DNA of 64,000 nucleotides from a phage: the sequence record PZ452578.1; one strand, written 5' to 3'. The position numbers were made by a program, and so were the translations under genes. Position 1 is the stretch's first letter. Every line of letters starts with the position of its first letter. This document shows, one piece after another, positions 31,357 to 52,713 of this stretch. Below the pieces are notes generated by a model. That model did not search any database. It had not been told where the DNA came from and saw only the letters and a program-made list of their open reading frames with translations.

Positions 31357-31830
31357 TTATTTGAATGATTTAACGTACTGAATAGAACCTTTACTATTCA
31401 CAAAGGCAATTTTACCATTTTTGTTATACATGGTAGCAGTACGTTGATAGCCATAAGTTTGTTTACCAGATTGATAACCAACTAATGCGAAATTATCTTC
31501 ACCCATTTTATTCTGTTTAGCGCGAATACGTTCATGGCCATGTGCCATAAGAACCTTAGCATCACCAGTTGCAATGGATCTACGAGTTTTTTCATCTTCA
31601 ACTGTATTAACAAAGTCGTCAAATGAATCAAATTTAGCATGAGATTTATTATACAGTTTTCCATCTACTGCATAATTATATCCTTGTACATCCATCTCAA
31701 CTTCTGTACCATCATCCAGTACAGCAGTGATTTTCTGTCCTTTTTTAAATTTCAAAAGATCAGTAAAAGATTCAGCAATAATTTGAGAATTAATAGCTGC
31801 TTCAGTAATAAATTCTTGATAGGTTTTCAT
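31357..31830 (-). CDS. Internal protein (IPII/IPIII family) with capsid-targeting N-terminus
   Basis: 157 aa; MKTYQEFITEA leader with protease-site-like ITE/A. Confidence 0.7.
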   Translation of the reverse strand: MKTYQEFITEAAINSQIIAESFTDLLKFKKGQKITAVLDDGTEVEMDVQGYNYAVDGKLYNKSHAKFDSFDDFVNTVEDEKTRRSIATGDAKVLMAHGHERIRAKQNKMGEDNFALVGYQSGKQTYGYQRTATMYNKNGKIAFVNSKGSIQYVKSFK

Positions 31831-31846: not shown

Positions 31847-32164
31847 TTATTCTTTAGGGAAGTTTTTAGAATATGCATCATAAAGCTTATTTCCAATACG
31901 GCGGAAAACTCTAGCCGCAAAACGATTTTCTGGGTTTTTAATCATGATTTGCATCATATAAGTACCCGCGTCAGAAAGAGCTTCTTCATAGTACCCGTTA
32001 ATTTCTTTAAGAGTCCTACGTTTACCACCAGGACCATCAACAGTGATTTTCCATTTACCTGTAGAAGTACGACTTGGCGGCTCAACTTGTTCAATCCAGA
32101 TATAACCGCCTTCTACACGTTGTCCTGCAGCAGATTCTGCAATAAATTCTTGATATGTTTTCAT
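31847..32164 (-). CDS. Internal protein (IPII/IPIII family)
   Basis: 105 aa; MKTYQEFIAES leader; early promoter upstream. Confidence 0.7.
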   Translation of the reverse strand: MKTYQEFIAESAAGQRVEGGYIWIEQVEPPSRTSTGKWKITVDGPGGKRRTLKEINGYYEEALSDAGTYMMQIMIKNPENRFAARVFRRIGNKLYDAYSKNFPKE

Positions 32165-35657: not shown

Positions 35658-35945
35658 AGTATTTCCTTAGGTTAATTAAGATTTAAAATCCATGAGAGTA
35701 TTATACTCCGGATAGTTTGTAAACTATTTCAACATCGCCTTTTGCTGCTTTATAACCTTCAGCCCAAGATACAACCGAGTTTTTATCTGAAGATTCAAAT
35801 TCTGGCATTGGGCTTTCGCCAATGTTCACGCAGTATGTTTCTTCATTTTCGTCGAACCAAATAATTAAAGTAGTCATTTATTTCTCCGTTTCTGTATTTG
35901 TTTTGATAAGTCTATAATAACACCGTCCTTGGTGTTTGTATACAA

Positions 35946-36221
35946 TTATTTCATATTATTGAAATATTCTTCAGCAATTTCATCATTATCATGATAAACT
36001 TTAGAAGACAGTTTAACATAACCTTCTGCCGTGAACATGTTAATCACAACCTTTACAGTATACCACTGACCGTCTTCATTACCCATTACTGCATAAGTTT
36101 CAAACATCGGATGGTCAGGACCGATAACTTTAATATCATTCACCGTACGACCAAAATCTTCTGAAACACATTTCATAAAGAAGTTGAACAGTTCACCGTA
36201 ATTATCCATTTCATTCTCCAA
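35946..36221 (-). CDS. Hypothetical acidic protein (91 aa)
   Basis: ORF track; early promoter upstream. Confidence 0.45.
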   Translation of the reverse strand: MENEMDNYGELFNFFMKCVSEDFGRTVNDIKVIGPDHPMFETYAVMGNEDGQWYTVKVVINMFTAEGYVKLSSKVYHDNDEIAEEYFNNMK

Positions 36222-36252
36222 GTTGTTTTCTGTATCAGCAGTTGATAGTTGT

Positions 36253-36282
36253 ATAGTACCATGGAAGAACAGGGATGTAAAC
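36253..36282 (-). promoter_or_regulatory. T4-type early promoter (repeat family)
   Basis: minus strand GTTTAC-18nt-TACTAT; near-identical to 21196-21265 block. Confidence 0.5.
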
Positions 36283-36415
36283 AGTTTTGTGAAAAAATTT
36301 TTAAAAAGTTTTAGGGAATTCTAGGGTCAGGAGGGGCAATTAAAAGGTAGGATAATATATTATAAAGGGTATAAACTAAATGATGCCTAGAGAGGCCCGA
36401 AAAGGCCTAGATACC

Positions 36416-36446
36416 AAAAAGCCCCAACCTTTCGGTCGGGGCTAAG
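36416..36446 (-). terminator. Terminator hairpin (GAAA tetraloop, 9-bp stem, U tract); copy 1 of exact 31-nt repeat
   Basis: plus aaaaagccccaacctttcggtcggggctaag; minus RNA GCCCCGACC-GAAA-GGUUGGGGC-UUUUU. Confidence 0.55.
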
Positions 36447-36450
36447 AATG

Positions 36451-36924
36451 TTATTTGATTTGTTTAGCAGACCAAATGCGGTCTTTAATAATTTTTTGGA
36501 TGTCTTCAACATACTCAAGAGAGTGAGCATGTGGGTTATCTTTGAAACTATAAGCACGAGCTAGCTTTTGGCCTTCAGTTTTGATTACTAAAAGCTCTTT
36601 AAGGATAGCTTCATATTTAGAGATAATTCCTTTAACAATATTTTTTTCTTGTGCAGCTTTAGGATCTGCTTTAGGAGCAGGTTTACCTGAAGCCTTTGCA
36701 AAAGCAGCTCCAGTAGCAACTAAACTTTTCCAGGCCATACTAACCGCATTTCCTGTAAATCCTTCTGCTTTCATGTCGCGAGCAAATTGGAATCGTGATT
36801 CATCGGAAGCATCTTTATAGGAATATTTACCCGCGGCAATGGCTGCTTTTGCGACAGCTTGAATTTCGGTGCTAGATGCTTCATTTAACACCGCTTCATT
36901 TAAAAATTGAGCATATGATTTCAT
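36451..36924 (-). CDS. Internal-protein-like protein with capsid-targeting-sequence-like N-terminus
   Basis: 157 aa; MKSYAQFLNEA leader resembling MKTYQEFIAEA of IPs with L-x-E cleavage motif; own late promoter and SD AGGAA. Confidence 0.6.
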   Translation of the reverse strand: MKSYAQFLNEAVLNEASSTEIQAVAKAAIAAGKYSYKDASDESRFQFARDMKAEGFTGNAVSMAWKSLVATGAAFAKASGKPAPKADPKAAQEKNIVKGIISKYEAILKELLVIKTEGQKLARAYSFKDNPHAHSLEYVEDIQKIIKDRIWSAKQIK

Positions 36925-36960
36925 CTTATTTCCTGTTTTAATTCGTGGTTTTAATATATT

Positions 36961-36968
36961 TATTTATA
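36961..36968 (-). promoter_or_regulatory. T4 late promoter box TATAAATA
   Basis: plus tatttata; 37 nt upstream of ATG 36924. Confidence 0.45.
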
Positions 36969-36970
36969 CT

Positions 36971-37001
36971 AAAAAGCCCCAACCTTTCGGTCGGGGCTAA
37001 G
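36971..37001 (-). terminator. Terminator hairpin; copy 2 of exact 31-nt repeat
   Basis: Identical to 36416-36446. Confidence 0.55.
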
Positions 37002-37050
37002 CCTTGCGGCAACCTTGTCGGGGTTCCACCTGCTAAGGCAAGTGTTTGTA

Positions 37051-37205
37051 CGAAACGCCGGGATTCGAACCCGGTTATTAAGCAGTTGACGCTACTCAAT
37101 ATTTTTAAAAGGCCATATCTCGACCATATCCGAACGTTCCGTCAAAAACGCTACTCGGCTTACGGCAAAGATATTTCCTCGAATCGATAATTCGGTGCGC
37201 CGTTT
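37051..37205 (-). ncRNA. Candidate stable tRNA-like RNA (T-arm plus acceptor 3' strand recognisable; 5' half not canonical)
   Basis: minus RNA ends CCGGG-TTCGAAT-CCCGG-CGTTTCG; possible partner AGAAACG about 150 nt upstream. Confidence 0.25.
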
Positions 37206-37314
37206 CTGCTGTGATATAAGTGGACATTAACAAAACATAAAGATTTATTAATGCCAGTCCTTAAACAGGGAACATCAGTCCGACGACTTACCGGTAGCGA
37301 CCCGGCTTCTTGTT

Positions 37315-37390
37315 TGGTCGAGGCAGTAGGAATCGAACCTACGACCTAGGACTTAGAAGGTCCTTGCTCTTCCTTCTGAGCTATGCCTCG
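37315..37390 (-). tRNA. tRNA-Arg (anticodon UCU)
   Basis: Manual fold: acceptor CGAGGCA/TGCCTCG, D-stem GCTC/GAGC, anticodon loop CTTCTAA, T-loop TTCGATT, CCA encoded. Confidence 0.8.
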
Positions 37391-37394
37391 GATT

Positions 37395-37469
37395 TGGCGG
37401 ACGTGATAGGATTCGAACCTATAACCAATCGCTTAACAGGCGATCGCTCTGCCATTGAGCTACACATCC
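37395..37469 (-). tRNA. tRNA-Asn (anticodon GUU)
   Basis: Manual fold: acceptor GGATGTG/CACGTCC, D-stem GCTC/GAGC, anticodon loop CTGTTAA, T-loop TTCGAAT, CCA encoded. Confidence 0.75.
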
Positions 37470-37473
37470 AAAT

Positions 37474-37560
37474 TGGTGGGGAGTGATGGAGTCGAACCAC
37501 CCGAGTCGCAATGACAATGGATTTACAGTCCACACCGCTACCTCTACGGGATAACTCCCC
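37474..37560 (-). tRNA. tRNA-like, Tyr-type (anticodon GUA, long variable arm), non-canonical D region
   Basis: Acceptor GGGGAGT/ACTCCCC, anticodon loop CTGTAAA, T-loop TTCGACT, CCA encoded; 4-nt linker before 3-bp D stem. Confidence 0.45.
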
Positions 37561-37569
37561 TAATTAATT

Positions 37570-37644
37570 TGGTGGCCCTGGGTGGAATTGAACCACCATC
37601 TGGCGATTATGAGTCGCTTGCTTGAACCTTCCAGCTACAGGGCC
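37570..37644 (-). tRNA. tRNA-Ile/Met type (anticodon CAU)
   Basis: Acceptor GGCCCTG/CAGGGCC, anticodon loop CTCATAA, T-loop TTCAATT, CCA encoded. Confidence 0.75.
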
Positions 37645-37645
37645 T

Positions 37646-37721
37646 TGGTGCTGATTGACGGAATCGAACCGCCGACCTTCTCATTACAAGTGAGTTGCTC
37701 TACCTACTGAGCTAAATCAGC
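37646..37721 (-). tRNA. tRNA-Thr (anticodon UGU)
   Basis: Acceptor GCTGATT/AATCAGC, D-stem GCTC/GAGC, anticodon loop CTTGTAA, CCA encoded. Confidence 0.8.
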
Positions 37722-37726
37722 AAAAC

Positions 37727-37816
37727 TGGCGGAGGCGATAGGATTTGAACCTATGAGTCGCCGGAGCGACTGCCGGTTTTCAAGACCGGTGCATTAAACC
37801 ACTCTGCCACGCCTCC
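37727..37816 (-). tRNA. tRNA-Ser (anticodon UGA), long variable arm
   Basis: Acceptor GGAGGCG/CGCCTCC, anticodon loop CTTGAAA, T-loop TTCAAAT, CCA encoded. Confidence 0.8.
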
Positions 37817-37818
37817 AG

Positions 37819-37892
37819 TCTCCATACAAGGATTTGAACCTTGGACCTCCTGATCCCAAATCAGGCGCTCTACCAAACTGAGCTACACGGAG
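37819..37892 (-). tRNA. tRNA-Pro (anticodon UGG)
   Basis: Acceptor CTCCGTG/TATGGAG, anticodon loop TTTGGGA, T-loop TTCAAAT; CCA not encoded. Confidence 0.8.
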
Positions 37893-37902
37893 TAAATTAA
37901 AT

Positions 37903-37976
<74 letters not shown>

Positions 37977-37981
37977 AAATT

Positions 37982-38068
37982 TGGTGCGAGAAGTGGGACT
38001 CGAACCCACAAGGAAATCATTCCGCAGCATTTTAAGTGCTGTGCCTTTACCAATTTGACCATTCTCGC
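37982..38068 (-). tRNA. tRNA-Leu (anticodon UAA), long variable arm
   Basis: Acceptor GCGAGAA/TTCTCGC, anticodon loop CTTAAAA, T-loop TTCGAGT, CCA encoded. Confidence 0.8.
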
Positions 38069-38069
38069 G

Positions 38070-38142
38070 CTGGGAATAAAGGACTCGAACCTTTGCATCC
38101 TGGAATCAAAATCCAGTGCCTTACCAACTTGGCTAATTCCCA
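38070..38142 (-). tRNA. tRNA-Gln (anticodon UUG)
   Basis: Acceptor TGGGAAT/ATTCCCA, anticodon loop TTTTGAT, T-loop TTCGAGT; 1 nt from tRNA-Leu. Confidence 0.8.
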
Positions 38143-39681: not shown

Positions 39682-39972
39682 TTACAAAAGATTTTTAGCA
39701 ATAATCTTGAGATGTGCTGCAGAAATGTGTTTAGCTTTAAACAACGCAGTTTCTTCAGCAGGAGAGATAACGATTGTAGCACCATCCTTTTTAGCAGACC
39801 ACCCATCACCTAAGTAAACAGTACCTTTGATTTCTTCGCCATCAACCAGACTAATCATTGGTTTACCTTCTCGTCCTTTATTTGCTTTAATAACTTCAGA
39901 AGTAAGAGTAGCTTCGGTAATGGTAGAAACCGGGGTAGTTGTAGTAGAAGTAAATTCTTTAAATGTTTTCAT
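39682..39972 (-). CDS. ipI: Internal protein I
   Basis: 96 aa MKTFKEFTSTTTTPVSTITEATLTSEVIKANKGREGKPMISLVDGEEIKG...; capsid-targeting leader with ITE/A site. Confidence 0.8.
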   Translation of the reverse strand: MKTFKEFTSTTTTPVSTITEATLTSEVIKANKGREGKPMISLVDGEEIKGTVYLGDGWSAKKDGATIVISPAEETALFKAKHISAAHLKIIAKNLL

Positions 39973-52674: not shown

Positions 52675-52679
52675 ATTAA

Positions 52680-52702
52680 GGGAGCCCATGGGCTCCCTTT
52701 TT
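52680..52702 (+). terminator. Rho-independent terminator after gene 8
   Basis: gggagcccatgggctccc palindrome followed by ttttt. Confidence 0.6.
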
Positions 52703-52705
52703 CTT

Positions 52706-52713
52706 TATAAATA
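52706..52713 (+). promoter_or_regulatory. T4 late promoter box TATAAATA (gene 9)
   Basis: tataaata 24 nt upstream of ATG 52738. Confidence 0.6.

Follow-up and report, generated by a model that had tools for sequence, protein, structure and literature searches.

A gene with an internal protein-like leader between two terminator copies in the rnaC–e.8 interval of a T4-like phage

Terminator repeats, a late promoter box, and the reading frame between them

A 64,000-nucleotide stretch of phage sequence record PZ452578.1 (here called the window) was analyzed around an open reading frame (ORF) that encodes 157 amino acids and lies between homologues of rnaC and e.8. The original prediction, made from the letters of the sequence, had described this candidate ORF as a swappable cassette for an internal protein (IP) packaged in the virion, with identical terminator hairpins on both sides, and all of its coordinates were correct. 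The window comes from a Tequatrovirus (T4-like) genome; positions 35900-37300 matched 742 phage records with up to 97% identity, and the gene order was as in T4: e.5, e.6, e.8, the candidate ORF, rnaC and rnaD, ten tRNA genes, tRNA.2-4 homologues, ipI, and 57B. The minus strand is the transcribed strand across the whole candidate region, and the features of the rnaC–e.8 slot are listed below in the direction of transcription.

37049..37187, minus strand: homologue of rnaC (species 1 RNA), upstream boundary of the slot, identified by blastn to T4 rnaC
36966..37001, minus strand: upstream copy of a 36-nucleotide repeat, predicted intrinsic terminator (stem-loop 36975-36998, U-run 36971-36974), homologous to the single T4 hairpin
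36961..36968, minus strand: T4-type late promoter box TATAAATA, 2 nucleotides past the upstream terminator U-run
36929..36934, minus strand: Shine-Dalgarno sequence AGGAAA, 4 nucleotides 5′ of the ATG
36880..36924, minus strand: leader resembling a capsid-targeting sequence (CTS), codons 1-15, MKSYAQFLNE/AVLNE/A, with two candidate sites for the gp21 prohead protease (slashes)
36451..36924, minus strand: coding sequence of the candidate, 157 amino acids, starting MKSYAQFLNEAVLNEA, 17 kDa, pI 9.46, PHROG 2280
36411..36446, minus strand: downstream copy of the 36-nucleotide repeat, predicted terminator (stem-loop 36420-36443, U-run 36416-36419)
35946..36221, minus strand: homologue of e.8, downstream boundary of the slot, early promoter of its own at 36253-36281

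A 31-nucleotide sequence occurred exactly twice in the window (36416-36446 and 36971-37001), where 100 shuffles gave an expectation of 0, and the repeat extended to 36 nucleotides with one mismatch (36411-36446 and 36966-37001), such that the two copies are 555 bp apart from start to start. On the minus strand each copy reads AGCCCCGACC-GAAA-GGTTGGGGCT followed by a U-run, and the hairpin of each has a 10-bp stem with 7 G-C pairs, a GAAA loop, and a folding energy of −20.3 kcal/mol (z score of about −3.3 to −3.8). Moreover, a terminator scan called both copies. Copy number relative to shuffles, folding, and terminator scan thus bore out the claim of exact repeats with GAAA-loop terminators on either side of the gene. 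We predict that the upstream copy ends the tRNA/rnaD/rnaC transcription unit and that the downstream copy ends the late transcript of the ORF. A 41-nucleotide query with the hairpin sequence matched 423 phage records, none of them at more than two places and always at the candidate locus, indicating that the hairpin is locus specific and not the ubiquitous terminator that would have refuted the original prediction. Among the hairpin variants, pairing was kept in 95% of cells, and one change in the stem was compensatory (C-G to G-C).

The gene had been said to carry its own late box and Shine-Dalgarno sequence, and both were located, as TATAAATA and AGGAAA. The late box adjoins the upstream repeat copy and is absent at the downstream copy, and no early promoter was found at either. 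An exact TATAAATA occupied the same position in 8 of 10 homologous A-type loci (the type to which the candidate belongs), the remaining two having ATAAATA; the loci with the exact box in place included that of Klebsiella phage K6, despite a hairpin of different sequence. A second composite of terminator and late promoter was observed at approximately 52678-52713 on the plus strand, where a strong terminator hairpin (AAGGGAGCCCATGGGCUCCCUU, −16 kcal/mol) is followed directly by TATAAATA and a gene start. We conclude that the terminator and late promoter design is not unique to the candidate gene and recurs at other late genes.

The candidate ORF matched the profile of PHROG 2280, a family annotated as of unknown function, over residues 1-157 with an E value of 1.6e-60. 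A tblastn search returned 512 phage records with 470 full-length homologues, called hypothetical in all annotated records that were sampled, and the family spans about 500 T4-like genomes of several genera; carriers include RB32, fD1, and the BASEL phage AdolfPortmann. Pairwise ratios of nonsynonymous to synonymous substitution (dN/dS) ranged from 0.07 to 0.23 against homologues of 73 to 84% identity. We conclude that the candidate ORF is a genuine gene under purifying selection; a spurious ORF was ruled out by dN/dS and by detection of a homologue by mass spectrometry (MS; see below). An exhaustive HMMER search of 1.8 billion representatives returned 10 clusters only, and two large proteins from that search (P0017 and P0018) were judged spurious, having matched via a repetitive AAGSYSYKAF motif. 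An AlphaFold2 (AF2) model of moderate confidence (pLDDT 74) was all helical, with a predicted layout of a disordered leader (residues 1-15), a three-helix N-terminal domain (18-71), a disordered Pro/Ala/Lys linker (76-87), and a helical hairpin (88-154). Because the model is of moderate confidence and all helical, fold matches carry little information.

Empty sites and slot states

T4 lacks the candidate ORF and has one hairpin copy. When aligned to the window, T4 matched positions 35946-36445 and 36966-37318, and because the two alignments overlap by 35 bp on the one T4 hairpin, T4 consists of the rnaC-side flank, one repeat, and the e.8-side flank. We conclude that a crossover between the two repeat copies would be expected to yield the T4 arrangement. 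PST and T6 were also empty with one hairpin copy, and the candidate was likewise absent from ACG-C40. Aligned against T-even genomes, as the original prediction had proposed, the repeats mark the junction between presence and absence of the gene with respect to T4, T6, and PST.

The order of rnaC, hairpin, U-run, TATAAATA, approximately 30 nucleotides, AGGAAA, ATG, ORF, and hairpin was kept in Mosigvirus a20, Dhakavirus ESCO10, Tequatrovirus GRNsp7, and several IMG/VR genomes. In many genomes (RB32, Kha5h, fD1, and ESCO10) the two repeat copies differ by 1 to 3 nucleotides. The flanking repeat itself is not new, as the annotators of RB32 had already noted it: the GenBank record describes RB32ORF133c, a hypothetical protein with 98% identity to the candidate, as "flanked by 34 bp imperfect direct repeat."

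In other phages the rnaC–e.8 interval holds further leader-bearing ORFs. One, here called B, encodes 187 amino acids beginning MKTYAEFLTEAA (e.g., RB14ORF136c) and was found in 165 records; another, here called C, encodes 205 amino acids beginning MKTYNEFLNESVLNEA and was found in 144 records, its carriers being Dhakavirus, Mosigvirus, and phages of Enterobacter, Klebsiella, and Serratia. The A, B, and C ORFs all match PHROG 2280 over their full length and are therefore divergent relatives rather than unrelated cargo; a Klebsiella homologue matches the same profile. B-type genes end in a different hairpin. To assign slot states, the T4 empty-site sequence was used as a query, the matching records were sampled at even spacing, and for those that covered the whole query the state was inferred from how long a span of the record had matched. 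Among approximately 36 such records, about 7 were empty, 19 carried A only, 5 carried B only, and 5 carried both A and B. Depending on the phage, the rnaC–e.8 slot holds zero, one, or two PHROG 2280 genes. Thus, the idea of a swappable cassette goes too far: the slot is polymorphic, but what it contains are diverged relatives from a single family, at times accompanied by a membrane ORF, and not unrelated cargo. The pattern, as read from sequence comparison, fits repeated gain and loss at terminator junctions, and exchange of unrelated genes is not indicated.

The membrane-like ORF that sometimes shares the slot (PHROG 2143, annotated as of unknown function) encodes 184 to 191 amino acids with a hydrophobic N terminus. 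Its carriers were Dhakavirus- and Mosigvirus-type phages and GRNsp7; hairpins bound this ORF too, and in locus L017 it has its own TATAAATA on the 5′ side. Its positions in three loci were as follows.

L017, 1645-2199: PHROG 2143 ORF
L008, 3018-3572: PHROG 2143 ORF
L018, 2314-2889: PHROG 2143 ORF

The two hairpins could instead be working terminators, one for the tRNA/rnaC unit and the other for the late gene, whose similarity is maintained by selection or gene conversion and which play no part as junctions, the gene being ancestral and lost from T4 by ordinary deletion. Synteny in Tequatrovirus, Mosigvirus, and Dhakavirus suggests ancestry, the copies have diverged slightly in the many genomes mentioned above, the composite near 52.7 kb places the same design at an unrelated late gene, and the B-type genes terminate in another hairpin. 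Nevertheless, the T4 junction falls exactly within the repeat and leaves one intact copy, and the states empty, A, B, and A plus B coexist among very close relatives, a distribution that repeated gain and loss fits better than a single deletion. We consider a purely terminating role doubtful, and it overlaps largely with the explanation that we prefer, because deletion between direct repeats is the mechanism proposed there.

Direct repeats that flank an insertion relative to T4 might also be the footprint of a mobile element, left by transposition or a homing endonuclease with the repeat as the target-site duplication, and homing endonuclease genes (segB) are active in the neighboring tRNA region of T4. 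The 555-bp unit, however, contains no transposase, integrase, or endonuclease, and its sole ORF encodes the 157-amino-acid helical protein. Moreover, target-site duplications typically fall far short of 36 bp, and the repeat, a functional terminator in its own right, has been kept across genera with compensatory change. A target-site duplication was rejected on ORF content and on the nature of the repeat, and we regard an origin of this kind as very improbable.

The leader and the virion proteomes

The CTS of the T4 IPs is MKTYQEFIAE, ten residues that suffice to package foreign proteins into T4 heads (PMC8442874, PMC9026906), and a mutational map of the IPIII CTS assigned residues 4 and 7 to targeting and residues 8 and 10 to processing (PMC9026906). 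The candidate leader, MKSYAQFLNE, keeps all four (Y4, F7, L8, and E10) and is followed by A. A position-specific matrix was built from eight distinct known IP leaders, with the candidate excluded, and scored at the 926 start positions of ORFs of at least 50 amino acids in the window. The candidate leader scored 18.1 bits and ranked fourth of 926, after three known ip genes (39.7, 38.5, and 31.5 bits); the next-best start site scored 7.3 bits, and the background was −13.1 ± 6.3. Alignment of the family showed M1, F7, and the Glu before (A/Q)SS to be invariant and Y4 to be conserved in at least 90%, and the invariance extended to the Klebsiella and Yersinia homologues, which are about 40% identical and differ in codon use. 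The initiation region, AGGAAA(T/A)AA..ATGAAA, is common to the candidate and the classical ip genes. The resemblance to T4 IP leaders that had been pointed out was therefore upheld by matrix score and by the CTS residue map, and we conclude that, at the level of sequence, it is statistically and functionally meaningful.

Two putative gp21 sites can be read in the leader, L8-N9-E10/A11 and its duplicate L13-N14-E15/A16. A 15-nucleotide tandem duplication (TTTTTAAATGAAGCG / GTGTTAAATGAAGCA) at 36880-36909 on the minus strand, covering codons 6-15, gives FLNEA-VLNEA and so doubles L-N-E/A. The duplication is present in the A-type genes of Tequatrovirus and in C-type genes, and it is absent from the short-leader genes of a20, ESCO10, and Klebsiella phages. 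The short-leader homologues end FLTE/QSS or FLAE/ASS, with LTE/Q, MTE/A, and LAE/A as the endings.

A protein 98% identical to the candidate, g140 of Yersinia phage fD1, was flagged as particle associated by liquid chromatography-tandem MS (LC-MS/MS) of virion preparations (Skurnik et al., Table S3). The detection proves expression and weakly supports a location in the virion. Virion proteomics, which the original prediction had proposed as a check for a processed product, thus gives the detection of a close homologue in a preparation whose proteome as a whole is unspecific. The paper on phage fPS-2 contains no proteome.

One way to account for these data without packaging is a late protein, such as an assembly helper or DNA-binding factor, whose CTS-like N terminus was inherited, or was copied along with ip-type initiation, and has no targeting function. 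All members belong to one family, PHROG 2280, and the leader may be ancestral; the DNA of the ribosome-binding site and of the first codons is like that of ip genes; virion MS was unspecific; and the locus and type of promoter are unlike those of classical ip genes. Against a nonfunctional leader, the residues retained are exactly the four for targeting and processing, and they vary little or not at all even among homologues that are about 40% identical and use different codons. Furthermore, since a 10-residue CTS is enough to package foreign proteins, a protein made late that carries one would be expected to enter proheads. We consider a protein that stays outside the capsid unlikely.

The reading that we favor, with a probability of roughly 60%, is that the candidate is a late-expressed, capsid-targeted IP at a third IP locus, insulated by two terminator copies that serve also as recombination substrates. 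Several observations weigh against it. The leader could have come down within the family instead of having been shuffled in as a module, as all leader-bearing slot genes form one homologous family, and the candidate lies at neither classical IP locus and lacks the early-promoter stem-loop found there. Searches of Pfam, NCBIfam, the PDB by sequence profile, and the PDB and BFVD by Foldseek gave no function match, as non-family matches had E values above about 1 and the rest were to the candidate's own family. Specifically, the candidate had no Pfam match above noise to the IPI_T4 domain (PF11634, GmrSD inhibitor), whereas the ipI of the window (39682-39972) scores 180 bits. The TATAAATA octamer was not enriched in the window (11 found against 10.9 expected), and the late-promoter argument therefore rests on positional conservation. 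Covariation in the hairpin was weak, with 66 of 500 shuffles as good and the copies chosen by a regular expression. Finally, the fD1 proteome (data set PXD026812) covers 113 of 277 gene products, DenV, lysozyme, and NudE among them, and is thus unspecific, and the virion proteome of SH7, a phage with a 100% identical protein, is shallow at 13 proteins and lists neither the candidate protein nor any IP. Taken as a whole, the observation made in the original prediction was confirmed, and its interpretation was partly supported.

Proposed mechanism and comparison with known systems

In the mechanism that we propose, the upstream hairpin would terminate the tRNA/rnaD/rnaC transcript, and the TATAAATA box that abuts it would drive late transcription, a process that requires gp55, gp33, and gp45 in T4. 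The downstream hairpin, of the same sequence, would stop the late transcript ahead of the early gene e.8. The MKSYAQFLNE leader would act as a CTS that carries the protein into the prohead core, where gp21 would remove it after L-N-E, at E10 and/or E15. Cleavage would leave an N-terminal peptide of ASSTEIQAVAK (from A16) or AVLNEASSTEIQAVAK (from A11), and the unprocessed form would give SYAQFLNEAVLNEASSTEIQAVAK. The basic product of 15 to 16 kDa would stay with the packaged DNA and be co-injected. Once inside the host, it would most likely neutralize a defense such as a type IV restriction enzyme, by analogy with Ip1-3. The two 36-bp terminator copies would be substrates for homologous recombination, such that a crossover would delete the 555-bp unit and leave one hairpin, the state of T4, T6, and PST, and the reverse event, or exchange guided by the flanks during co-infection, would install the unit.

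All three T4 internal proteins, Ip1-3, are specific inhibitors of different GmrSD type IV restriction enzymes (PMC12373910), and another gene of an IP locus counters the type IV systems of K-12 (bioRxiv 10.1101/2025.11.20.689424). An antidefense role for the candidate would follow these two precedents by analogy. More tentatively, it is possible that the rnaC–e.8 interval is a third, unrecognized IP locus of T-even phages with a diversified PHROG 2280 family in zero, one, or two copies, whose products would be made late, targeted by a CTS, processed by gp21, and co-injected, and would disarm a defense outside the reach of Ip1-3, such as another GmrSD or type IV subtype. Its junctions of terminator and late promoter would then be a "late" counterpart of the stem-loop modules discussed below and would move the unit between co-infecting phages. 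In the records and literature searched, no published link of PHROG 2280 or RB32ORF133c to internal proteins was found.

If the proposal is true, about 500 sequenced T4-like phages carry a ready-made family of antidefense candidates that is absent from T4 and annotated as hypothetical, and the map of IP gene locations would be extended to a locus at odds with the stated two-locus picture. T4, having no copy of the gene, is a natural null background for testing the candidate. The duplicated-terminator junction with its clean empty site would provide a simple, testable case of how T-even accessory genes are gained and lost while neighboring transcription is spared.

The surroundings of the slot also differ from T4 in places. 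The spacer at 36222-36415, approximately 190 nucleotides that lie between the downstream terminator and e.8 and contain the e.8 early promoter (36253-36281), is free of ORFs and about 95% conserved with T4; it opens with a second hairpin, CUAGGCCUUUUCGGGCCUCUCUAG, at 36375-36410 and had no Rfam match. Homologues of rnaC and rnaD, the stable RNAs of T4 (species 1 and 2), are present at 37049-37310. No Rfam family matched rnaC, rnaD, or the hairpin, and it appears that the long-known rnaC and rnaD have no covariance model. The tRNA cluster at 37315-38142 comprises ten genes (Arg, Asn, Tyr, Met, Thr, Ser, Pro, Gly, Leu, and Gln) and lacks the homing endonuclease gene segB; T4, for comparison, has eight tRNAs with segB between Arg and Ile. 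On the far side of e.8, T4 e.7 is replaced by a 58-amino-acid ORF at 35701-35877 on the minus strand, as in RB14 (ORF134) and PST (ORF130), so that this variable region has a further small indel between e.6 and e.8.

IP genes have been placed at two loci only, 57B–tRNA.4 and denV–e (PMC2839356, PMC12373910). That loci for ipI and for ipII/ipIII are also present in this genome had been stated earlier; ipI is indeed found at 39682-39972, but the supposed ipII/ipIII locus holds neither ipII nor ipIII. At denV–e we found Ip4 (PHROG 3155) at 31357-31830 and an ORF of 105 amino acids at 31847-32164, both on the minus strand. The latter has a perfect MKTYQEFIAE leader, yet belongs to PHROG 3966, annotated as of unknown function, and judging from that leader is probably another IP not annotated as such in PHROGs.

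Like the T4 IPs (Mullaney & Black 1996), the candidate has an N-terminal leader of about 10 residues of the form MK(T/S)(Y/F)xxF(I/L)xE with a putative L/I-x-E gp21 site, encodes a small, basic protein, is nonessential and patchy among close relatives, and is bounded by repeated regulatory stem-loops and preceded by an ip-like ribosome-binding site. Unlike them, it lies between rnaC and e.8, outside both IP loci. The ipI, ipII, ipIII, Ip5, Ip7, and Ip9 genes have on their 5′ side a T4 early promoter, GTTTAC ... GATACTAT, inside an A+T-rich stem-loop and have no TATAAATA within 110 nucleotides, whereas the candidate is flanked by G+C-rich intrinsic terminators and a late box. In addition, the slot genes are homologous to one another (PHROG 2280), whereas the classical IPs share the leader only. 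Thus, at the level of sequence the candidate shows the functional features of a classical IP, and it departs from two descriptive ones, location and type of junction.

The junctions are best compared with the promoter-early and promoter-middle stem-loops (PeSLs and PmSLs) through which modules are shuffled in T4-type phages (Arbiol 2010, PMC2839356; Comeau 2014, PMC4122927). In PeSL cassettes, mini-circles arise by recombination of the flanking elements. As in those cassettes, repeated terminator stem-loops flank a variable ORF and would insulate it transcriptionally, the indel junction between close relatives falls inside the repeated element, and the stem is of the GGGG...CCCC type noted there. 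The differences lie in the promoter part, which is a late TATAAATA rather than a σ70-like early or Mot-dependent middle promoter, and in the extent of the duplication, which at the candidate covers only the stem-loop and U-run and leaves the downstream copy without a promoter. PMC2839356 contains none of the terms "late promoter," "late genes," and "TATAAATA," and PMC4122927 does not use "late" in its main text. We conclude that the kind of gene and the kind of junction found in the rnaC–e.8 interval both have clear precedents, the former in the IPs and the latter in the PeSLs.

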